From Deltaproteobacteria bacterium (GTDB lineage: Bacteria > Desulfobacterota > Binatia > Bin18): a DNA stretch of 64,000 bases. The translations under genes and the position numbers were made by a program. The notes under the pieces were generated by a model. The model was not told the DNA's origin. It searched no databases and saw only the letters and a list, made by a program, of their open reading frames with translations. Where the stretch lies: positions 13,243 to 77,242 of the forward strand of contig SHZE01000001.1 in the NCBI GenBank assembly GCA_009692435.1, given 5' to 3'. Of this stretch, positions 1,941 through 41,597 are shown one piece after another (positions within the stretch are counted from its first letter, which is position 1; every line of letters starts with the position of its first letter).

Positions 1941-3173
1941 ATGGGCCATGAGCGCGACCGTCACCAAGCAGAACTTCGTCCCCCCTGCCCTCATTACCCA
2001 GCCTGTCACGGCTGTCCTTTTCTTCAGTTTCCGTACCGAGAACAGTTGGCCAAGAAACAGGAGATTGTCGCTCGGGCTTTGCACGAGTATTCATCTCTGA
2101 CCTCTGTCGAAGTCCCGCTCCCCGTCCCTTCCGCCCGCCAGTTTGGCTATCGTGCACGGACCAAATTAGCGGTCCGCAAAGTCAAAGACAAAATTCTGAT
2201 CGGGCTCTACGTTCCCGAGTCCCATGCGGTGGTGGACATATCGGCCTGTCCGGTCCACCCGCAGCCGGTCAACCAGATCATTCAATTTCTCAAAGAGGCA
2301 ATTGAAAGGTTCGGCATCATTCCTTACGACGAGGAACATGACACCGGCCAGTTGCGCTATATCGATCTGCGCTACAGCTTCTGGCAACAGCAGGTGGTGC
2401 TGACCCTCGTCACCCGCCACATGCACTTTCCACAGGTCCGCGACCTGCTCCGCGTCCTCGAACGTCAGTTCCCATTTCTGATCGGTGTCGTCCAGAATAT
2501 CAACGACAAACCCGGCAACGTAATCTGGGGAGAGCGGTTTTCTCCGCTCCGGGGACGCGATGCGCTGTTGGAAAAGCTGGGCGAATTAAAAATGAGTATC
2601 CCCGTGGATGCCTTCTCCCAAGTGAACACGCAGGTCTCCCGCAAGCTGTATGAAAAGACCCTGGAATGGGCGGGATTGACTGGAAAAGAAATCGCCTTCG
2701 ATCTCTACTGTGGCATTGGTCCGATCTCACTCTTCCTCGCCTCTCAGGCGCAGTTAGTGATCGGGATTGATGACAACGTTGGCGCGATTAACACGGCCAA
2801 GCAGAACGCCCGCCGCAATGGCTACAATAATTGTCGCTTTTTTGCCGGGGATGCCGCCGAAAAACTTCGCGAGACCGCCATTTCGGTCGCTCATGTCGAT
2901 GTGATCGTCGCCAATCCACCCCGCAAAGGATTAAGTGTCGATGCTTTTGCCGCGATCCTCGCAACGAAAACACCGAAGATTATCTACATTTCCTGTGCCC
3001 CAGCCACTCTTGCCCGCGATCTTGATCGTTTTTCCGTTGAAGGGTATTTCGTGCAACGAGTGCAGCCCTTCGATATGTTTCCTCAGACCAGTAAAGTCGA
3101 GACCATTGCACTGCTCGAACGGACACCTCCTCTTGTTGTCTCACCTCTGACTTTTACACCGCTAGCGCAATAA
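1941..3173 (+). CDS. 23S rRNA (uracil-C5)-methyltransferase, RlmC/RlmD (RumA) family; start could instead be 1869
   Basis: N-terminal Cys cluster CPHYPACHGCPF (Fe-S site as in RlmC), SAM-methyltransferase fold, and the family signature motif VIVANPPRKG near the C-terminus. Confidence 0.7.
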   Translation: MGHERDRHQAELRPPCPHYPACHGCPFLQFPYREQLAKKQEIVARALHEYSSLTSVEVPLPVPSARQFGYRARTKLAVRKVKDKILIGLYVPESHAVVDISACPVHPQPVNQIIQFLKEAIERFGIIPYDEEHDTGQLRYIDLRYSFWQQQVVLTLVTRHMHFPQVRDLLRVLERQFPFLIGVVQNINDKPGNVIWGERFSPLRGRDALLEKLGELKMSIPVDAFSQVNTQVSRKLYEKTLEWAGLTGKEIAFDLYCGIGPISLFLASQAQLVIGIDDNVGAINTAKQNARRNGYNNCRFFAGDAAEKLRETAISVAHVDVIVANPPRKGLSVDAFAAILATKTPKIIYISCAPATLARDLDRFSVEGYFVQRVQPFDMFPQTSKVETIALLERTPPLVVSPLTFTPLAQ

Positions 3174-3208
3174 CGCTCGTCGCAGTCAGGAGGAAAGGAA
3201 CCTCACGC

Positions 3209-3955
3209 ATGGCGCTGACCTCTACGACCCTTTCGCCAGTAGCAACATCGTTGTTCCCCTCGGTTTGGTTACAGGCGAACGGATGGAACCATATCCCTCG
3301 CCTCATTCATGGATTCTCCCAGCGGATTGATGACCGGCACCTTGCGCTCGCCACGCTCAATGCGGAAACCCTTCCTCTCCACACGTTGAAACAGGTACAC
3401 GGAGACGACATTCTCATTGTCCACCAGGAAAGCGATACCAACGACCGGCCAGAGGCAGATGGCCTTATGAGTCGCGAGTCCGGCGTCCTCCTTGGTATCG
3501 CCACCGCGGATTGTGTTCCCGTGCTCATGGTTGCTCCTGAACATGGCCTCATTGCCGCTCTTCACGCCGGGTGGCGTGGAACACTCAAGGGAATCAGTCA
3601 GCGCGCGGTTACCATGCTCAATGACCGCTGGCGGATTAAGCCGGCAAGTGTCTGGGTTGCACTCGGTCCCTCTATTTCTCTCTGTTGTTACGAAGTTGGG
3701 CGCGATGTCGGAGAGGCCCTCCATGAACGCTGGCGCTCACAATCAGCCTGGCACCCTCACGGAACGGGAGACAAAGGCTTTCTTGATCTTCGTGCCGTCA
3801 ATCGTGCGCAATGTGAGGGCGTTGGAGTTCCCGCGGCACAGATTCAATCGGTCGGCCCATGTACCTTTTGCGCATCACCCGACTTTGCTTCATATCGCCG
3901 TGAAGGGGCTGGAGCTGGACGACAACTCAGTGTCATCGGTTGGCGGAAAGACTAA
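3209..3955 (+). CDS. pgeF: Peptidoglycan editing factor PgeF / YfiH (laccase-domain, DUF152) family
   Basis: Motifs QVHGDDILIV, ADCVPVLM, HAGWRGT and C..C..C are characteristic of the YfiH/PgeF family. Confidence 0.7.
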   Translation: MALTSTTLSPVATSLFPSVWLQANGWNHIPRLIHGFSQRIDDRHLALATLNAETLPLHTLKQVHGDDILIVHQESDTNDRPEADGLMSRESGVLLGIATADCVPVLMVAPEHGLIAALHAGWRGTLKGISQRAVTMLNDRWRIKPASVWVALGPSISLCCYEVGRDVGEALHERWRSQSAWHPHGTGDKGFLDLRAVNRAQCEGVGVPAAQIQSVGPCTFCASPDFASYRREGAGAGRQLSVIGWRKD

Positions 3956-15392: not shown

Positions 15393-16511
15393 CTACTCTC
15401 TCGCGGCGGCAAGGTCGTCGTTGGTAAATTTTTCCACATCCACATCCTGCGGTTCGCGCGCTGGTTGTGGGTTTTGCCCTTCTTCTGATGAGTCGAATTC
15501 TCCTGACGGCGCGGGTCTACTACCTTTAGTGATCTCAGTCGGCATGCCGGTTTTCGCCATCAACACTTTCAGGAGCAGGCGCGGGTCGATCAACTCGGTC
15601 AAGCCATTGGCCTGCGCGATTTTTTGCGCTTCCTGCCACAAGTCGGGCACGATCTTGTAAATGTCTTCGTGCACTTCGGCATAGACCTTGCCGTTCAGGA
15701 TTCCGAGTTTCACTGGCTGATAGACAAACTCTCCGGCACTGCCCACCCGAACGACGTTGAAGAACTGTTGAATATCTTCAGGGTACATACGAATACAGCC
15801 GTGCGTGACTAAGCGCCCAACAGCCCAGGGATTATTCGTATCGTGGATTTTATACAGAGGCAGCGTCAGATCAATGCGATACTTGCCCATGGGATTATCC
15901 GGTGACCCCGCCGGAATAAAATCCTCGGTCCACCCTTTCTCGGCAATGCGCTCTTTCTTGATTGAGTCAGGAATCACCCACACTGGGTTTGGTGTCTTCC
16001 CATTGACTTTGAATTTCGCGACCGGCGTAGGCCAATCTTCACGGCCAAGCCCGACGGGCAACGTCACCACGGTACGCTGGGTCGCGCTCTTGTCTCGTGG
16101 CGGAAAGTAGTACAACCGCATCTCCGGGATATTAACCACAATCCCCTCGTATCCACTTTGCGGCAGAATCCAGAAGGTTGGCAGTTGAATCGTCTCACCA
16201 AAAGGGGGGAGCCACGGGTCCATGTCGGGATAGACACCAGTCACCTCGTTGTAGCCCAAGTCTAAGTAGCGAGCGATGTCGAGCAGCGTATCTTTTCTCT
16301 GCAACGTATACTGGCGTGGCGACCCAATAATGGTTTGGGCACTAAGATCCCCGGGTCTCTCTGGCAGGAAGAACGGGCGAGCGACGATGATGGTCTTGCC
16401 ATAGAAAATGTCTTCATCCCAAGCGAAGGCCGAAAAGGAACCAACCGTGAGACTCCCCAGAGCGAACAGCAGTGCCGACATGGAATGAAAGACTTTTGCC
16501 GTGATACTCAT
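15393..16511 (-). CDS. L,D-transpeptidase (YkuD domain) with signal peptide
   Basis: Catalytic motif HGCIRMYPEDI (His/Cys of YkuD) and N-terminal signal sequence MSITAKVFHSMSALLFALGSL. Start reset from 16712 to the Met that precedes the signal peptide. Confidence 0.7.
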   Translation of the reverse strand: MSITAKVFHSMSALLFALGSLTVGSFSAFAWDEDIFYGKTIIVARPFFLPERPGDLSAQTIIGSPRQYTLQRKDTLLDIARYLDLGYNEVTGVYPDMDPWLPPFGETIQLPTFWILPQSGYEGIVVNIPEMRLYYFPPRDKSATQRTVVTLPVGLGREDWPTPVAKFKVNGKTPNPVWVIPDSIKKERIAEKGWTEDFIPAGSPDNPMGKYRIDLTLPLYKIHDTNNPWAVGRLVTHGCIRMYPEDIQQFFNVVRVGSAGEFVYQPVKLGILNGKVYAEVHEDIYKIVPDLWQEAQKIAQANGLTELIDPRLLLKVLMAKTGMPTEITKGSRPAPSGEFDSSEEGQNPQPAREPQDVDVEKFTNDDLAAARE

Positions 16512-16596
16512 AAATTCTTGAACCCTCCTCCTGCATCTAGGCAGGAGTATAACATGCGAACTTCGTCCGGACAAAGGGAAGAGGCGGGAAAAACTC

Positions 16597-16992
16597 CTAC
16601 GACGACGAAGCCGCTTTAACCGGATGTGAGTCCTTCCTAAGGGCGTGGGAAGAACCAGTCCGGGAGCTTTTCTTGCGAAGCGCAGGTTTGTTGTGCTTGT
16701 GCTGTTCGGCAAGAAGCCGATCCAGCTTCATATTGACGTTGACAAGATTCCCCTGCACGGTCTCCAACTTGGCGAGCAGTTTATTATAGTCATCCTTGGA
16801 GGGGAGATTGAAAAGAAAGAGGAATGAATCGACGCCACGCCCGATCTTGCCTTTTGTCGCCGCCGCATTTTTGAGCGCTTTTTTGGCGACCTCCGTGACG
16901 GTCGGGTTCGACAGCAGTTCGGTAAGAAAGCGATTGAATCCTTCCTCGCCAGCCTCATAGAGCTTCTCAAAAAGAGAATGTTCTTCGTGCAC
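16597..16992 (-). CDS. Phasin-family (PHA granule-associated) protein, tentative
   Basis: Coiled-coil protein with the motif FNLPSKDDYNKLLAKLETVQGNL, which resembles the TIGR01837 phasin family core. Confidence 0.4.
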   Translation of the reverse strand: MHEEHSLFEKLYEAGEEGFNRFLTELLSNPTVTEVAKKALKNAAATKGKIGRGVDSFLFLFNLPSKDDYNKLLAKLETVQGNLVNVNMKLDRLLAEQHKHNKPALRKKSSRTGSSHALRKDSHPVKAASSS

Positions 16993-17063
16993 TCAGTCTC
17001 CATACAACAAGATGCCGGAAAAGAGTAGGGCGTAAACGTCCGGCGAACAGTTTCGCGTTTTGG

Positions 17064-17125
17064 GTTTCGAGTTTCGAGTTTCGAGTAGGAAGAGGGTTGC
17101 AGGTTTCGAGTTCCGATCCTACTCC
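17064..17125. repeat. GTTTCGA heptamer tandem (x3) plus GAGTAGGA/TCCTACTC inverted repeat
   Basis: gtttcgagtttcgagtttcgag followed by an 8-bp inverted repeat. The related motif ACTCGAAACTCG recurs at 40549-40572. Confidence 0.5.
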
Positions 17126-17408
17126 CTTCGATCCTCAGCCCTGAAATTCTCAGCCCTTACCTTGGACGGCAGCCAATCCAGCGATGTCGATGGCGATTCC
17201 TTAGTGTAGCAGGGATGGGGGCATGGTTAGACTCTCCTCACAAATAGGAGACATTGCAGTTTTATTGATCTCAAACACTCGTGGCATACATGGATCGACG
17301 CCCTGGGCCAGGGGCAACAGAGCGTCGGTGTGGAAACAGCGAGTAAAGTGGGCGGTCAGCCGCTTGTGGAGCGGAGTGGGCTTTGCTCCTTGGCTCAGCC
17401 CTCGGTCT

Positions 17409-17879
17409 TTACGCACATTTGCTTAAACAGTCACGGATAGGATCAAGTTCGGGGAGTTTTCCCGCGTCTTCCGAAACCCAGGCGTATTGCACCACGCCTT
17501 TCTTATCAACAACGAAGGCCGAGCGTTTCGAGACTCCTTTGAAGCCGAGTAAGCTTTCGTAAATCGATCCGTAGGCAGTCGATGCTTCTTTATTAAAATC
17601 ACTGAGCAATGGAAAGTTGTACCCTTCCTTCGCTGCCCACGCGTCAAGTGAGAAAGGACTGTCCACACTAATGCCGACGACCTGAGTGTTTTCGTTTTGT
17701 AAGGTATTGATGTTGTCTCGCACGGAGCAAAATTCCTTGGTTCAGCCACCGGTGAAGGCGAGCGGTACGAATAAAAGCACGACGTTCTGCTTTCCTTGAT
17801 ACTCACTGAGCTTGAAGTCCTTCATTTTGTTGGTCTTCAGGCTAAAATCTGGCGCTTGCTGTCCGACTTGAACACTCAT
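17409..17879 (-). CDS. bcp: Bcp/PrxQ-type peroxiredoxin with in-frame TGA (17742-17744) at the peroxidatic-Cys position; candidate selenocysteine (Sec) protein, 156 aa
   Basis: Read through the TGA, the protein is [14 protein letters not shown]...[13 protein letters not shown][U][10 protein letters not shown]... and aligns with E. coli Bcp (...[20 protein letters not shown]...). The TGA falls exactly on the peroxidatic Cys of the PxxxTxxC motif, and the resolving Cys lies 5 residues later. The ORF track splits it into 17409..17723 plus an unannotated 5' part. The ATG overlaps the gyrA stop (ATGA). Confidence 0.7.
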
Positions 17880-20389
17880 AAGTCCTCCTCTGTTGTTGTG
17901 GTTGGGTTATCTTCTTCGGCGACCGTTGCGATTGTCGCCTCTTCCGCGACTATTTCATCCTCTTTTTCGGCGAGCAAGGCAAGACTGACCACGCGCTCTT
18001 CGGAGTTCGTCGTAACCAATCGTACACCTTGGGTGTTTCGTCCGATGACGCGTAATTCAACCATTCGCAGGCGAATGATTCTACCAGTATCAGTCACGAG
18101 CATCACGTGATCGTCGTCCGTGACTTGGCGCACGCTAATCACTTCGCCACTTCTTTCAGTCGTGCGCATGGTGATAATGCCTTTACCCCCACGTGATTGC
18201 CGTCGATATTCTTCAATCTCACTGCGTTTTCCGTATCCCTTGGCGGAGACAGTGAGCAGGGTCGCTCCAGTGTTAATCGTCTCAAGAGATACAACCGCAT
18301 CTGCCTCTTCGAGCGCGATGCCTTTGACGCCATAGGTTCCCCGTCCAGTTGAGCGGACTTCTTCTTCGGCAAAGCGGATGGCTTGTCCGTTCTTGGTGGA
18401 CAGCACGATTTGGTGGGTGCCATCGGTCAGGCGCACGCCAATCACTTCGTCGTCATCTTCGAGCGCGAGTGCGATAATGCCATCGCGCCGGGGATTGGAG
18501 TAGGACATCAATTCGGTTTTCTTTACTAACCCTTTGCGCGTGGCGAAGATAATATATTTTCCCTCTTGGAATTCACGCACTGGCAAGAAGGCGGAGATTT
18601 TCTCGTTCTCCCGGAGCGGCAACAGATTGACAATGGCTTTGCCCTTTGCCGTGCGTCCACCGAGCGGGATTTCGTGTACCTTGATCCAGTACACCCGCCC
18701 AATGGTCGTGAAACACAAGAAGTATGAATGGGTCGAAGAGATAAACAGATGTTCAACGAAATCCTCTTCCCGTGTCGCCGCGCCCATGACGCCTTTTCCC
18801 CCGCGTCGTTGCGAGCGATAGAGCGTGGGGGAATTGCGCTTCACGTACCCTTCATGGGAGATCGTCACGACCATGTCCACTTCAGCAATCAGGTCTTCAT
18901 CAGAAATGTTGGTAGTGTCGGTGACAATTTCTGTCCGCCGGTCATCAGCGAAGCGGGTACGAACGTCTTTCAGCTCGTTAACAATTAGGGTATCGATTTC
19001 TTGCGCACTCGCGAGCACGGTTTGGAGCCGCTGAATCTGAGCCACCGTTTCGTTGTGCTCGTCGAGAATTTTTCCCTGCTCCAGTTGAGTCAATCGCTGC
19101 AAACGCATTTCCAGAATCGCTTGCGCTTGAGGTTCACTCAGAGAGAATGCGCTCATGAGTCCTTGCCGCACGCTGGCGGGATTCTGTCCGTTGCGAATGA
19201 GCTGAATCATCGCGTCGAGATTCTCTAACGCGATTTTCAACCCAGCCAAAATATGGAGGCGGTCTTGGGCTTTTTTCAGTTCAAACGCCGTACGGCGGCG
19301 CACCACTTCTCGGCGATGGGCTAGAAAGAAGAGCAGCGTGTCCTTGAGGGTCAGAACCTGCGGGCGGCCATCAACAATGGCCAGCATAATGACGCCGAAC
19401 GAATCCTGCATCGGCGTCATGCGGTGCAGTTGATTGACAACAATAGTGGGAACCGCGTCGCGTTTGAGTTCGATGACAATACGCATGCCATCGCGATCCG
19501 ATTCGTCGCGGAGGTCCGAGATACCGTCGATGCGTTTTTCATTGACCAGTTCGGCAATGCGCTCAATCAAGCGGGCTTTGTTCACCTGGAAAGGAATTTC
19601 GGTGACGATAATACTGTTCTTGCCACTTTTCTCGTTCGTCTCCACCAACGTTCGAGCACGCATCTGTATGATGCCTCTGCCAGTTTCGTAGGCGTCGCGA
19701 ATGCCGGAAGTGCCGTAAATGAATCCAGCCGTGGGAAAATCAGGGCCGGGAATGTACTGCATGAGGTCGGCGTTGGTGAGAGAAGGATTGGCTAAGAGGG
19801 ATAGGAGTCCGGCAACGACTTCACCAAGGTTGTGTGGCGGGATATTCGTGGACATCCCGACCGCGATGCCGGAAGAACCGTTAATAAGTAAATTGGGGAC
19901 TTTGGCTGGTAAGACGACCGGTTCGCTGAGGGTGCCGTCGTAATTTTCCAGAAAATTGACGGTGTCTTGATCAATGTCGGCGAGCATCTCACTCGCAATG
20001 CGCGTCATGCGGATTTCGGTGTACCGCATCGCGGCTGGGGGATCGCCGTCTATCGAGCCGAAGTTCCCCTGCCCGTCGATGAGCGGATAACGCAGAGAAA
20101 AATCTTGGGCCATCCGCACGATGGTGTCATAGACGGCGGTATCACCGTGTGGGTGGTATTTACCAATCACATCGCCAACGATACGCGCCGATTTCTTATA
20201 GGCGCGGTTCCAATCGTTGCCGAGGTCGGACATGGCATACAGCACCCGACGATGAACAGGCTTCAGACCGTCGCGGACATCGGGGAGCGCTCTCCCGATG
20301 ATGACGCTCATGGCGTAGTCCATGTAGGACTGGCGCATTTCCTGTTCGATATTAACGGGGGTTATTAATCCGTTAGTGTGATGTTCCAT
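17876..20389 (-). CDS. gyrA: DNA gyrase subunit A
   Basis: Motifs [24 protein letters not shown], active-site Tyr region and the GyrA-box region; 837 aa with an acidic tail. Confidence 0.95.

Positions 20390-20495: not shown

Positions 20496-20497
<2 letters not shown>
20402..20497. repeat. ACGTAAA-unit palindromic element (family member 3 of 5); about 25-bp stem
   Basis: AGACGTAAAAAGCTGAGCGTGAACG pairs with CGTTTTACGCTTAGCTTTTTACGTCT; flanked by further CGTAAAG/CGTAAAACGTAAG units, in the gyrB-gyrA intergenic space. Confidence 0.65.
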
Positions 20498-22937
<2,440 letters not shown>

Positions 22938-23030: not shown

Positions 23031-24185
23031 TTAAAAAATACGCATGGGCATGACGACATAAGAAAAATTTTGATCTTTCTCAGCTTGGATTAGGCACGGA
23101 CTCGATTCGTCCTTGAGCAGGAACGAGATTTTTTGTTCCCCTTCGAGGACAGAAAGCATCTCGATGAGGTACCGACCATTGAACCCGACGACGAGGTTTT
23201 CGCCCGCATAATCGATAGCGATTTCCTCGACCCCTTCGCCAAGGTCCGGGGTGTTGACCGAGATTTCCATTTTGTCTTTCTCGATCTGGATTTTGACGCC
23301 ACGCGATCGTTCGGTGGTGAGAATCAAGAGACGACGAAGGGCACTTAGTAGGTCCTCGCGAGAAAAGCTGACGACGTGTTTGGTATCTATCGGGATGACC
23401 TGGTTGTAGTCGGGAAAATCCCCCTCGACCAGGCGCATGGAGAGTTCCGTCGAGTCCCTAGCAACGTTAAGTGTTGAGCCGTGAAGCACGAGTTCAGTCT
23501 TTTCGTCTCCTTTTTCGAGTAATTTGCGGGCTTCAACGAGTCCTTTCCGGGGGAGAATCGCGCTAGGCCAGTCGATGGGCACAGTGCCGAACGCTTCGCG
23601 TTCGATGAAAGAAAGTCGGTGCCCGTCACTGGCAACCATTCTGAGACGGCCGTTTTCCTGCCCCTTTGGGGCCGTGCGGCCCTCCAAATAGACTCCGCTG
23701 AGGTTGGGGCGGGATTCATCGGGAGAGGCCGCGAAAAGGGTTTTCTCGATCATTTCCCGTAACGTCTGTCCGGCAATGGCAACTGATACTAACGGTTTCT
23801 TTCCTTCGACGTCGGCGGCAGGCGTGGAAACGAGTGCTGGGAATTCTTTAGGATCGAGGCTAGCCATACGGAATCTCGACTTGCCACTGCTGACCTCGAC
23901 CCAGCCGTTCCCGGTGGATCGTAACGAGACGCGATCTGGAGAAAGCTCTCGAACGATCTCGTACAGTTTGCGTGCGTCCGTCGTGACAGCCCCTTCTTTC
24001 TTGACTGTGGCTCTGCACTGCTGACGGAGGCCGATTTCGAGATCTGTCGCTCGGAGCGAGATCGCTCCGTCTTTCGATTCGATGAGTACATGCGAGAGGA
24101 TCGGCAAAGATGAGCGTTTCTCAACTACGCCTTGCACTAAATACAAACAGTGTAACAAATCTTCCTTTTCGAGAATGCTTTCCAT
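23031..24185 (-). CDS. dnaN: DNA polymerase III beta sliding clamp
   Basis: Three-domain, ~380 aa beta-clamp; the N-terminus LPILSHVLIE and overall length are consistent; located directly downstream of dnaA/oriC. Confidence 0.9.
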   Translation of the reverse strand: MESILEKEDLLHCLYLVQGVVEKRSSLPILSHVLIESKDGAISLRATDLEIGLRQQCRATVKKEGAVTTDARKLYEIVRELSPDRVSLRSTGNGWVEVSSGKSRFRMASLDPKEFPALVSTPAADVEGKKPLVSVAIAGQTLREMIEKTLFAASPDESRPNLSGVYLEGRTAPKGQENGRLRMVASDGHRLSFIEREAFGTVPIDWPSAILPRKGLVEARKLLEKGDEKTELVLHGSTLNVARDSTELSMRLVEGDFPDYNQVIPIDTKHVVSFSREDLLSALRRLLILTTERSRGVKIQIEKDKMEISVNTPDLGEGVEEIAIDYAGENLVVGFNGRYLIEMLSVLEGEQKISFLLKDESSPCLIQAEKDQNFSYVVMPMRIF

Positions 24186-24504
24186 TCCTCTCTTCCCTTT
24201 CTTATATTCCCAATTTTTTTCCGTTCATTCGGAGTCTTCACATTTTCATGCCTCCTTTTTTCTACTGCTACTTCTTATTTTTTCATAATAGTAGCAGTAG
24301 GGGGTGTGAATATGTGGATAAGTGGCTTAACTATATAGATTCGTTAAAATAGTTATTCACACCCCCTGTGAATAACCCTGTGAATAACTTGACCGAGGCA
24401 AAAAGTTATCCACAGGTTATCCACAGGTTATCCACAGGTTATTCACAGGTTATGCACAGGGTTATGCACAGGGTTATGCACACCCTCTCAAACCCTGTTT
24501 CCAA
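24186..24504. other. oriC: Chromosomal replication origin oriC (dnaA-dnaN intergenic): AT-rich unwinding element plus a DnaA-box cluster
   Basis: AT-rich tract 24190-24300 with a perfect 10-bp inverted repeat CTACTGCTAC/GTAGCAGTAG. Consensus DnaA boxes TGTGGATAA (24313), TGTGAATAA x2 (24367, 24379) and TTATTCACA (24353). Followed by a head-to-tail array of 7 boxes. Confidence 0.85.
24406..24490 (+). repeat. Array of 7 tandem DnaA boxes with 11-12 bp period: (TTATCCACAGG)x3, TTATTCACAGG, (TTATGCACAGGG)x3
   Basis: Seen directly in the sequence. There are no spacers between the units, so this is not a CRISPR array. Three boxes are the perfect consensus TTATCCACA. Confidence 0.85.
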
Positions 24505-25866
24505 TTAATTTTCTTCTCCGAAAACTATGTTTTCAATCCGTGCGAGAACGGCCCGTAGCTCTTCATCCTGCTTGAGGCGTTTCTCAATAGAAGCACATGC
24601 GTATAACGCTGTTGTGTGATTTTTACCACCAAAGCGGACGCCAATCATGGGGTATGAAGCCCCAGCTAACTTGCGGCACAGGAACATGGCGACTTGACGC
24701 GGAAAGGCGACCATCTGTGTCCGTTTCTTAGAGGTCAGATCAATGACCCGGATAGCGAAGTATTTGCACACCGCTTTCTGGACCGTTTCGACCGAAACTT
24801 CTTTGTCCTTATCTTTTCCCCCTCTCATGAGGTTTTGTAGGACCTGCTGAGCAAGGTCAATCGTAATCGGACTGTCAGTCATGGTAGAAAAGGCCCCGAG
24901 CTTGGTGAGCCCGCCCTCAAGCTCGCGAACATTAGCGGTCACGTGGGTCGCGATAAAGAGCGAGACATCGTGAGGGAGCTGGATTTTCTTTTGTTGCGCC
25001 TTTTTTTGGAGGATGGCGACGCGAGTTTCAAGGTCTGGTGGTTGGATATCGGCGATCAATCCCCACTCGAAGCGATTTCGCAGCCGCTCTTCGAGTCCTT
25101 CAATCTCGTTGGGAAATTTATCGGACGTGAGAATGATCTGCTTGTGGGATTGGTGAAGCGTATTGAACGTATGGAAAAACTCTTCTTGGGTCCGTTCGCG
25201 GCCGGAGAGAAACTGGATGTCGTCGATGATTAAGACATCCGCCTGGCGGAACTTATTCTTAAAGTCATCCATGCGGTCACGCCGTAGATGCGCGATCAAT
25301 TCATTAGTGAAAGTTTCTGACGATAAATAGAAAACACTCTTCCCACCTTGCTTCACGATCGTTTCGTGCCCAATCGCGTTAATGAGGTGAGTTTTTCCTA
25401 ACCCGACACCACCATAGATAAAAAGCGGGTTATAGTGCTTGCCTGGATGTTCGGCGACCGCGCGTGCGGCGGCATTGGCAAATTGATTGCCAGCACCAAC
25501 GATAAAAGAGGAGAACGTATAATTGGAGACCAGCCCGTTCTTTTTCGTGCCAGTGGAGCGTGAGGACTCCCCCTTTGTGTTCTCCCGGTCGTCATATTGT
25601 TGTGACGGAAATAGCTCGCCCTGTTGTTTGGCCGCGACATGGATGACGATCTGGACCGCGAAGCCAAGAATGGTTTCGAGCGATTTCCGAATATGGGGTA
25701 GGAGATTTTCTAATAACCAGTCACGGAACAACGAATTCGGCACTTCAAGGTGCAGCGTGTCCTCGCGGAGTGCGAGGGGTTTCACTGGCTTGAGCCAGGT
25801 TTCCGTCGTGACATGACCGACCTTCTTCTCAACCTCATTAAGGACCTGCCCCCATATATGCTGCAC
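24505..25866 (-). CDS. dnaA: Chromosomal replication initiator DnaA (start trimmed to the GTG at 25866)
   Basis: AAA+ motifs GVGLGKTHL, sensor regions and C-terminal DnaA-box-binding domain. The 58 N-terminal codons of the 511-aa ORF cover a palindromic pair of DnaA boxes (GTTATTCACACCTGTGAATAAC, 25899-25920) and have no DnaA domain-I similarity, so the true start is likely downstream. Confidence 0.85.
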   Translation of the reverse strand: MQHIWGQVLNEVEKKVGHVTTETWLKPVKPLALREDTLHLEVPNSLFRDWLLENLLPHIRKSLETILGFAVQIVIHVAAKQQGELFPSQQYDDRENTKGESSRSTGTKKNGLVSNYTFSSFIVGAGNQFANAAARAVAEHPGKHYNPLFIYGGVGLGKTHLINAIGHETIVKQGGKSVFYLSSETFTNELIAHLRRDRMDDFKNKFRQADVLIIDDIQFLSGRERTQEEFFHTFNTLHQSHKQIILTSDKFPNEIEGLEERLRNRFEWGLIADIQPPDLETRVAILQKKAQQKKIQLPHDVSLFIATHVTANVRELEGGLTKLGAFSTMTDSPITIDLAQQVLQNLMRGGKDKDKEVSVETVQKAVCKYFAIRVIDLTSKKRTQMVAFPRQVAMFLCRKLAGASYPMIGVRFGGKNHTTALYACASIEKRLKQDEELRAVLARIENIVFGEEN

Positions 25867-26267
25867 GCCGCCCCCCTCCCGTTGTTTCGCGAGAAGGGAG
25901 TTATTCACACCTGTGAATAACTCTCCAACATGACCTAATGACTGAAGTTTTTCCCCTTGCACCACAAAGTTCTCCACATACTTCTCCCCCGCCTTTTCTC
26001 TCTCCATCCCAGGGAGGCCCTGGCATCCGCCAAGCATCAATGGGGAAGAGGGGGTAAGCCTTCACTATTTTTACTGTTCTGTGTCGGAAAAAAAGAGATT
26101 GAACTGAATGAGTATGGGAATGGAGTAGACTCTTTTTTTTCCCTTTGCAAGCAAAAAAATGTACTCCGGCAGAAGTGGTTGTGTTGTCTATCGTTTTGGT
26201 TTGCCTTGACTCACAAAATGTCGGATGGTAACAGGATGAAAGTCTTTCACGCGCAGGGAACATTTCT

Positions 26268-40125: not shown

Positions 40126-40548
40126 TCATGTCATTGATCTGTGCTGAGTGACAAGCCGAGCGATAAACTTCGGACTGGTGCGGTTGAGATTGATCTTCTG
40201 TTCGCACATGGCCAGGTACTGGTGTAGATACTTCTTGTGAACCCCGCAAAAGGGGCGCTGGAAATTGCGCGCCGTGGGCCACAAGCCCTCAATGGTGTTG
40301 GTATAGACCTCCCGGATGCCCTCGCCATCCTCGCCCCGCGCCCATGCTTTCTGGCCGTGACACCCCGTGTGGGGAGTGCGCTTGCTTCGGGTGTCGCCCT
40401 GCCCCTCAGCAGTGTACCCCGTGGTAGCTCTGGGGGTGTCTTCATGTCCGTAGTGGTGCCACGTCTTGCCCTCGGTCTGGTGCCCCCGCGCACGCGCCAT
40501 TGCCCCCTGTAGCGCCCGACGGTCCCAACAATGGGAGAGGTCATACAA
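40126..40548 (-). mobile_element. IS1595-family (ISXO2-like) transposase, C-terminal fragment only (remnant)
   Basis: C-terminal motif YTNTIEGLWPTARNFQRPFCGVHKKYLHQYLAMCEQKINLNR matches the IS1595 DDE-transposase C-terminus (HTNTIEGFWS...H..S.KHL..Y..EF.FR.N.R). The N-terminal ~150 aa and any terminal inverted repeats are missing. Confidence 0.6.
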
Positions 40549-40572
40549 AACTCCGAACTCGAAACTCGCTAC

Positions 40573-41349
40573 TCACACCCGCGGCTTTCGCTGTTCACGA
40601 TAGACCTGCATTGATTCAGAGAACTCACCCGTGGATACCGAAGCGACGCGGGCATTGACGATCTCGCGCGTGAGTGTCTCCGTGTCGAGGTCCCAGGTGC
40701 GCGTGAGCAGATGTTTCGCGGAGGCTGCCGCTTTGCGCCCCACTTTCAGGCAGCGCTCGGCGAGTTTTTGAGTCTCCACGCCTAATTGATCGAGTTCGAT
40801 CAGACGCGACAGTAACCCTAAGCGATCCGCTTGCATCGCATCGAACCGTTCGCCAAGGATCACGAGTTCCTTGGCTTTCGCCAGACCAATCAGTTGTGGT
40901 AGCCGATAGATCGGTTCGGCATCGGGAGGTGAACCGTATAACACCTGCGGTACGGCAAAAAAGGCATTGGTGGCCGCGACACGAAAATCGCAAGCAAGAA
41001 TAAGTTCCATACCCGCCCCAAGACATGGCCCCTGCACCGAGGCGATGGTGAGTTGATCGAGATGCGTGAAGATGTTGAGTGCGCGTTGCCACGGAATCCA
41101 CGTCGCATTCATCGCTTCAGCGGTCGCTGGGCGATTGGCCGCCGCCTGGAGGTCCATTCCCGAACAAAACGCGCGTCCTTCTCCCTTGAGGATAATGACG
41201 CGCGTCTCCGTATCCGCCCGAATGGCATTGCACGCCTCCTCAAAGTCAAGAATCAGTTGACCGTTGACGGCATTCAGCGATGCTGGACGATCGAGAATCA
41301 AGAAGCCGATTGGTCCTTCCTTCTCAAAGCGCAACGTATCCCATTCCAT
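40573..41349 (-). CDS. Enoyl-CoA hydratase/isomerase (crotonase family)
   Basis: Crotonase motifs ILDRPASLNA and KGEGRAFCSGMDL, with oxyanion-hole residues. Start trimmed to MEWDTL. Confidence 0.8.
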   Translation of the reverse strand: MEWDTLRFEKEGPIGFLILDRPASLNAVNGQLILDFEEACNAIRADTETRVIILKGEGRAFCSGMDLQAAANRPATAEAMNATWIPWQRALNIFTHLDQLTIASVQGPCLGAGMELILACDFRVAATNAFFAVPQVLYGSPPDAEPIYRLPQLIGLAKAKELVILGERFDAMQADRLGLLSRLIELDQLGVETQKLAERCLKVGRKAAASAKHLLTRTWDLDTETLTREIVNARVASVSTGEFSESMQVYREQRKPRV

Positions 41350-41597
41350 AGTGCCCCCTCGGACTCCGAACTGTTTTGGACTCCGAACTTTCTTCATAGC
41401 AAACACTCGCAGCGTTGCCAGCACCTTCTTTGAGTATCCCGCCGGCCTCCCTTAAAGAAGCGCAGGTTGTCTGCTAAGCACACAGGGCACAACTTTCAGT
41501 GGCCAGTGGCCAGTTTTCGCAAGGTTCGGAAAAGGCGGCTCATAGAGCTGAACGCTGATGGCTGACTGCTGATACACAAGGAGATGCCGCAACCCGC

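Follow-up and report, generated by a model that had tools for sequence, protein, structure and literature searches.

An in-frame UGA at the peroxidatic position of a Bcp/PrxQ-type peroxiredoxin gene next to gyrA in Binatia: a probable selenocysteine codon

We analysed a 64-kb stretch of DNA from a bacterium of the Binatia lineage (the window: 64,000 nucleotides of contig SHZE01000001.1, assembly GCA_009692435.1), which carries, directly after gyrA, a gene for a Bcp/PrxQ-type peroxiredoxin (Prx) of the AhpC/TSA family whose reading frame is interrupted by a single TGA. This gene, prx (17409..17879, minus strand, as for all its features given below), starts with an ATG at 17879 and runs through 45 sense codons, the TGA and 110 further sense codons to a TAA. 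It therefore has 156 sense codons when codon 46 (17742..17744), a UGA in the transcript, is counted as the selenocysteine (Sec) codon that we predict it to be. The list of open reading frames (ORFs) cuts prx in two, a 45-residue frame (17742-17879) and a 104-residue frame from an internal GTG (17409-17723). The first-pass annotation of this DNA had held that the gene is really 156 codons long, and both this length and its translation of 17409-17879, in which codon 46 is the sole internal TGA, are reproduced exactly by ours.

The TGA occupies the peroxidatic position of the motif P39-x3-T43-x2-U46. Five residues past U46 lies the codon of the predicted resolving Cys, Cys51 (17727..17729), a residue kept in 32/32 class I Sec forms and in 13/13 Cys forms. 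Near the C-terminus, the alignment of orthologs brings out a further pair, C151-x3-C155 (codons 151-156, 17412-17429). The Sec forms keep C151 in 29 and C155 in 31 of 32 cases, and position 155 is Leu in 7 of the 13 Cys forms. Judging from this distribution, C151-x3-C155 may be a second redox pair tied to the Sec form.

Translated with Cys at codon 46, the read-through protein matches PF00578 (AhpC-TSA) with a score of 131.1 bits (cutoff 26; E = 2.8e-38), covering profile positions 1-123 of 124, and it also matches PF08534 (Redoxin, 2.9e-23). BLASTP against E. coli K-12 Bcp (from NC_000913) aligns 135 residues with 36% identity (E = 1e-25). In this alignment codon 46 and Cys51 are matched with Cys46 and Cys51 of Bcp, respectively, confirming that the TGA sits at the peroxidatic Cys and that the resolving Cys follows five residues on, both of which had been claimed at first pass. 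P39, T43 and R119 are invariant in 48/48 orthologs examined. The nearest solved structures are S. solfataricus Bcp4 (3hjp, 3.5e-33), S. tokodaii Prx (2ywn, 7.7e-33) and A. pernix Bcp (2cx3, 2.2e-28), archaeal Bcp-type proteins that carry a C-x4-C pair like that of prx, while matches to M. tuberculosis AhpE (~3e-25) and to typical 2-Cys Prx (1e-20 or weaker) are weaker. The first assignment to Bcp/PrxQ stands on the PF00578 match and on these structures, and by sequence prx belongs to the BCP/PrxQ subfamily of atypical 2-Cys enzymes.

An AhpE-like identity was tested and dropped because the Bcp-type structures match better. Mycobacterial AhpE (1xxu/1xvw) resembles prx in its 'FPLAFTG-x-C' and 'FPLLSDF' motifs, but it is a 1-Cys enzyme whereas prx retains the Bcp-type resolving Cys at +5. 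With E. coli Bcp and the archaeal Bcp-type enzymes (3hjp, 2ywn/4g2e, 2cx3), prx shares a length of about 156 residues, the arrangement P-x3-T-x2-C(P)-x4-C(R) and the conserved Arg. It differs from these enzymes in having Sec (predicted) where they have the peroxidatic Cys, and also in the additional conserved C151-x3-C155 pair. The cutoff of NF006960, the NCBIfam equivalog for E. coli thiol peroxidase Bcp, is missed (87.7 vs 140 bits), as are those of the curated selenoprotein families PrxU (NF040737, 71 vs 270 bits) and Prx-SUH (NF045827, 61.5 vs 298 bits). By these profile scores prx is a relative of E. coli Bcp within the subfamily and no equivalog of it, and it represents a Sec-Prx lineage distinct from PrxU and Prx-SUH.

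The split frame is not peculiar to this assembly. A protein search returned many full-length homologs of 156 residues (75-94% identity), all with Cys46, together with 104-residue proteins that correspond to the C-terminal part only (83-97% identity). In the DNA behind the latter, the division into 45 and 104 residues recurs in independent assemblies (Logan, NCBI, ENA). Further loci came from one scan each of genome contigs and metagenome contigs. To count the codons at position 46, we took sequences whose identity to the window protein was 65% or more across the 101 C-terminal residues used as the tblastn query; the TGA genes among them stem from independent sources, namely NCBI metagenome-assembled genomes (MAGs), ENA, JGI and Logan. 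Among unique genes, codon 46 is TGA in 40, TGC in 9 and TGT in 5; TAA and TAG do not occur. The TGA genes make up 25 clusters at 90% nucleotide identity and span identities of 70-99%, the lowest pairwise value in the first set of 22 TGA genes being 70%. The close relatives of the locus are MAGs of Candidatus Binatia, some of them labelled Deltaproteobacteria or otherwise mislabelled. Several of the loci (L014/L007, L020 and L021) come from MAGs titled 'uncultured Enterobacteriaceae bacterium' (binchicken co-assemblies) despite their Binatia-type locus. Given that they share dnaA-dnaN-gyrB-gyrA-prx synteny with Binatia MAGs, these titles look like a taxonomic mislabel.

A pseudogene, a nonsense allele or an error of sequencing or assembly could in principle account for the TGA, since a single-base change from TGC to TGA suffices and since, in two loci (L012 and L013), an intact adjacent Cys paralog could compensate for a lost copy. 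Decay, as the first-pass annotation pointed out, would leave stops or frameshifts at varying positions in relatives. The opposite is found: 40 distinct sequences, assembled independently, all have the TGA at codon 46, where other orthologs have only TGC or TGT, and apart from this codon the TGA genes are free of stops and frameshifts. Purifying selection is strong in both halves: among TGA genes the median ratio of nonsynonymous to synonymous substitution rates (dN/dS) is 0.041 before the TGA (codons 1-45) and 0.047 after it (codons 47-156), with no difference from Cys genes. In most genomes, this window included, prx is moreover the sole copy at the gyrA locus. Because TGA46 is conserved in 40 genes with dN/dS of about 0.04 on both sides, pseudogene, sequencing error and tolerated truncation are ruled out, and on the comparative data we regard this family of explanations as effectively refuted.

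The same holds for reassignment of TGA to a sense codon (Trp or Gly), in favour of which there is the in-frame TGA itself and nothing else. TGA terminates 20 of the 57 long ORFs in the window, gyrA among them, with normal protein lengths, and it also ends several prx orthologs; therefore the code is not reassigned. Homologs have Cys at the aligned residue, not Trp or Gly. Nor did a scan of the window for a second gene with an in-frame TGA give a credible case among 107 mechanical candidates, of which only two merited a closer look. One of these (15393-17003) is a YkuD gene joined to a spurious, Arg/Ser-rich and non-coding-looking upstream extension, and the other (40126-41424) was rejected as two adjacent genes. 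In the latter, a 140-residue ORF without a Pfam match (40126-40548, minus strand) follows in frame directly after an enoyl-CoA hydratase gene (40573-41424) with a TGA between them, and by sequence the two look like separate genes. Reassignment is likewise effectively refuted.

A third possibility is that the locus makes two products, a 45-residue N-terminal peptide ending at the TGA and a 104-residue C-terminal protein starting at the GTG of codon 53. Public gene calls show these two ORFs in every assembly examined, and conserved nucleotides surround the GTG. Three lineages (L011, L019 and L101), however, have GTT or GTA as codon 53, so that there is no conserved internal start, and no purine-rich Shine-Dalgarno sequence precedes the GTG. 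The C-terminal fragment would have only half of the thioredoxin fold and no P-x3-T-x2-C active site, and both halves are colinear with intact Cys-form homologs under the selection described above. We consider two separate products highly improbable.

If the UGA is recoded as Sec in the bacterial manner, a Sec insertion sequence (SECIS) would be expected just past it. The first-pass annotation had predicted a hairpin about 11 nt from the UGA with a G/U in its loop. Because folding of a single sequence cannot decide the matter, the 76-nt fold after the UGA containing the hairpin but being no stabler than shuffles (z = +1.16), we used a comparative analysis of synonymous sites, scoring the entropy of synonymous codons in sliding windows of 7 codons. 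For the first 22 TGA genes, all full-length, the entropy has a mean of 1.17 bits (standard deviation 0.25) and a single deep minimum of 0.29 at codons 49-55; in the enlarged set of 32 TGA genes, the minimum is 0.41 bits at codons 51-57. Cys genes have 1.03 bits at codons 49-55 and no such dip, although divergence is equal in the two sets (median third-position identity 0.46 for Cys vs 0.48 for TGA genes). The suppression of synonymous variation, found in TGA-type orthologs only, thus extends over codons 49-57 (17709..17735). Within it, TGC51, CGA54 and GAC55 are invariant in TGA genes (32/32 each) compared to 7/13, 8/13 and 8/13 in Cys genes (Fisher p = 2e-4 for Cys51, 1e-3 for Arg54 and 1e-3 for Asp55).

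The RNAalifold consensus, together with these invariant paired sites, defines a predicted SECIS core hairpin at 17713..17730. Counting the U of the UGA as 1, it pairs 16-31, 17-30, 18-28, 19-27 and 20-26, can be extended to 15-32 and leaves A29 bulged. Its apical loop is C21-G22-U23-G24-C25 (17720-17724). The three invariant synonymous sites are paired bases of the hairpin (C18, A27 and C30), while positions 21 and 24, the two synonymous sites of the loop, vary among TGA genes. Synonymous constraint over a hairpin in the Sec form only is the signature expected of a bacterial SECIS. Its base lies 11-12 nt and its G-U-containing apical loop 17 nt past the UGA, in keeping with the first prediction. 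A different register (UUUUGC/GCGAGA, loop UCCGU), which is the minimum free energy (MFE) structure given by ViennaRNA for the majority sequence, was rejected as the conserved structure because it pairs the variable third position of Val53 and leaves the invariant third position of Asp55 unpaired.

The published bacterial SECIS model calls for an apical loop of 3-9 nt, an upper stem of 4-16 bp, a G in the first two loop positions, a distance of 16-37 nt from UGA to loop and an MFE of -7.5 kcal/mol or lower (PMC13188914). The prx hairpin agrees with this model in loop size (5 nt), stem (5-6 bp with one bulge), the G-U at loop positions 2-3 and the 17-nt spacing. In the minimal SECIS of E. coli fdhF, the upper stem-loop lies about 11 nt past the UGA and has a G-U in the loop and one bulged base. 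The prx element resembles it in all three respects, its base being 11-12 nt past the UGA, but the two have no sequence similarity, and the prx stem is shorter (5-6 bp with an AU-rich base) and much less stable.

Several observations weigh against a Sec-specific element and, more generally, against Sec decoding. In the window version of the hairpin, the energies are weak and at best borderline (-4.5 kcal/mol for the core, -5.3 for a 48-nt fold and -8.1 for a 76-nt fold, compared to the threshold of -7.5), and the shuffle result given above points the same way. Variants with Leu50 reach -7 to -8.7 kcal/mol. Classical covariation is absent in the main group, in which the stem is invariant. Rfam did not find a SECIS at the gathering threshold in the window or at E <= 10 in 17600-17800. 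Neither ARAGORN nor Rfam found a tRNA-Sec in the 64 kb, where the only tRNA and sole Rfam match is tRNA-Arg-CCT, and ARAGORN did not find one in 20 related Binatia loci either. The E. coli SelA, SelB and SelD proteins, used as tblastn queries against the window and the fetched loci (806 kb), gave no match; for the window, these negatives bear out the statement at first pass that it holds no Sec machinery. Finally, our literature search turned up no mention of selenocysteine in Binatia or Binatota, bar one match in a reference list.

These are also the points that speak for read-through of UGA46 without Sec, through near-cognate Cys or Trp insertion or by some other recoding, with the RNA element stimulating read-through rather than binding SelB. 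The Sec machinery was not found in the 806 kb, the hairpin is small and thermodynamically undistinguished, and the literature search gave no Sec trait for Binatia. Such read-through leaves unexplained, however, why the UGA lies exactly at the catalytic redox Cys of a family with known Sec members, and why the position and G-U loop of the hairpin fit the bacterial SECIS model. For insertion of Cys, TGC would serve at no cost, and TGC and TGT forms do exist as separate alleles. TGA is furthermore a normal stop in this genome. We judge read-through without Sec to be improbable.

Taken together, we conclude that prx very probably encodes a Sec-containing atypical 2-Cys Bcp/PrxQ peroxiredoxin in which UGA46 is recoded, a reading first put forward at first pass and now supported by 40 TGA orthologs, by purifying selection before and after the codon and by the Sec-form-specific constraint over the hairpin. 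We infer the insertion of Sec at codon 46, the binding of SelB, the catalytic cycle and the reductant. In the proposed mechanism, prx would be expressed from the dnaA-dnaN-gyrB-gyrA cluster, its own Shine-Dalgarno sequence being contained in the last codons of gyrA and its start codon sharing bases with the gyrA stop. UGA46 would be decoded as Sec through the bacterial SelB/tRNA-Sec system, directed by the small in-gene SECIS hairpin just past the UGA. Sec46, in the P39xxxT43xxU46 site with Arg119, would attack the peroxide, Cys51 would resolve the resulting selenenic acid to an intramolecular selenenylsulfide, and a thioredoxin- or glutaredoxin-type reductant would reduce the latter.

A small group of orthologs departs from this arrangement. 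In a class II sub-lineage of three loci (L023, L024 and L025, prx at ~3001-3471 in each), two of which are complete Binatia chromosomes (L024, OZ246887.1, and L025, OZ241744.1), U46 is kept and three residues are changed (C51G, R54Q and D55A). Through these changes the stem loses its bulge and becomes a perfect helix of 6 bp, UUGGCU/AGCCAA, in the same place and with the G-U still in the loop, and its energy is -6.3 kcal/mol for the core and -8.4 to -12.8 with flanks. With the resolving Cys replaced by Gly51, the predicted product of these genes is a '1-Sec' peroxiredoxin.

The residue directly before U46 also differs between the two forms. Codon 45 (17745-17747) encodes Gly ahead of Sec in 35/35 Sec genes compared to Val in 11/13 Cys genes, which suggests that Sec needs a codon or residue context at this position. 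A neighbour-joining (NJ) tree of Sec and Cys forms, which has no bootstrap and is indicative only, places every Sec form inside one inner clade. Within it, 'GG-Cys' forms, Cys forms with the 'GG' context typical of Sec (P0001, P0012, P0017, P0028, L087 and L088), are scattered as sisters of single Sec forms. In the DNA of L087 and L088 the hairpin sequence is retained, in L087 with TGT at Cys51. This pattern suggests repeated or recent single-base reversions from Sec to Cys in Binatia prx.

Copies of both kinds can also occur in one genome. In L012 (33-3471) and L013 (493-1701), gyrA is followed by an ATGA-overlapping Cys-type prx, a gap of ~260 nt and a Sec-type prx; the organism is closely related to that of the window, its Sec copy being 96% identical. 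In L009 the Sec-type prx is located elsewhere in the genome, away from gyrA.

Sec-to-Cys reversion has been described as rare in bacteria (PMC13188914), and for Prx only Cys-to-Sec events were counted by Zhang et al. 2006. The nested GG-Cys alleles, the tandem paralogs and the 1-Sec variant raise the idea that two-way Sec/Cys switching is frequent in Binatia prx. The hairpin, in turn, may be an unusually minimal bacterial SECIS (5-6 bp, about -4.5 kcal/mol and below threshold) with an obligatory Gly before the UGA. As a joint proposal we hold this to be tentative and on balance rather unlikely. If true, it would contradict what is currently held, namely that bacteria rarely revert from Sec to Cys and that selenoproteins are seldom retained in aerobes.

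The concept of a Sec-containing Prx is not new. Sec-peroxiredoxins with PxxxTxxU have been known since Sohling et al. 2001, and Sec-containing members of PF00578/COG1225 have been described repeatedly (Zhang, Fomenko & Gladyshev 2005; Zhang et al. 2006; 2026 review PMC13188914). Sec-Prx is listed among the experimentally supported prokaryotic selenoproteins and is present in many anaerobes. Like the known examples, prx has the same fold and family, Sec (as predicted) for the peroxidatic Cys in T-x-x-U, abundant Cys homologs, a putative SECIS within the coding sequence right after the UGA, and an annotation that splits or truncates the gene, as is routine for this family. It differs from them in its host, Candidatus Binatia, unreported as Sec-using in the literature searched, and in the unusually small and weak SECIS core. 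The finding thus leaves the existing picture of selenoproteins unchanged and extends a known family to Binatia, what is new being the lineage and such apparent details as the minimal SECIS, the gyrA coupling, the Sec/Cys switching and the 1-Sec variant.

Nonetheless, the finding has practical consequences. In all public assemblies examined, prx is mis-annotated as fragments of 45 and 104 residues, and an antioxidant enzyme is thereby missed in Binatia genomes. Decoding of UGA46 as Sec would imply that members of Binatia, an uncultured class or phylum, use selenocysteine. The 40 Sec and 14 Cys alleles also form a well-sampled set for the minimal size of a SECIS and for the interchange of Sec and Cys at the peroxidatic site.

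Next, we consider the genes around prx. Its start (17879-17877) overlaps the stop of gyrA (17878-17876) in an ATGA (17876..17879, minus strand), as the first-pass annotation had stated. The 837-residue GyrA (17876..20389, minus strand), which ends in TGA, is identified by PF00521 (3.5e-165) and PF03989 (7.1e-72). Upstream on the same strand follow gyrB (20496..22895, 799 residues; PF00204, PF00986, PF01751 and PF02518), dnaN (23031-24185) and dnaA (24505-26040), which complete the dnaA-dnaN-gyrB-gyrA-prx cluster. A putative Shine-Dalgarno-like sequence for prx, GAGGAGGA (17883..17890, minus strand), lies within the last gyrA codons (...EEDL*).

The overlap is widespread among relatives: of the 46 orthologous loci with at least 400 nt upstream, 41 have the ATGA at the end of a long ORF that precedes prx, in Sec and Cys forms, and this ORF is gyrA in every orthologous locus with Pfam annotation. 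A GAGGAGG-type motif ahead of the prx ATG is conserved across loci, as is the acidic GyrA tail EED[LVI], which is possibly constrained by the embedded Shine-Dalgarno sequence of prx. From this arrangement we infer that translation of prx is coupled to that of gyrA. Since the ATGA overlap is common to Sec and Cys forms, co-expression with gyrase would be a conserved feature of the lineage and not peculiar to the Sec form. The fixed overlap with gyrA near the probable replication origin could reflect a functional link between peroxide defence and gyrase expression.

On the other side of prx, about 700 bp (16713-17408) up to the YkuD gene contain only short overlapping ORFs, and no intrinsic terminator was found 3' of prx on the minus strand. 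The genes that follow encode a YkuD L,D-transpeptidase, a YjbQ/UPF0047 protein, RadC and a MaoC dehydratase, in an order syntenic with L007 and L011.

Finally, the intergenic region between dnaA and dnaN (24313-24482) contains 11 matches to the DnaA box (TTATCCACA, at most 1 mismatch), 7 of them in tandem from 24406 to 24474 with a spacing of ~11 nt. In the whole window there are 32 such matches compared to 8.9 expected by chance. This dnaA-dnaN intergenic region is a probable chromosomal replication origin.

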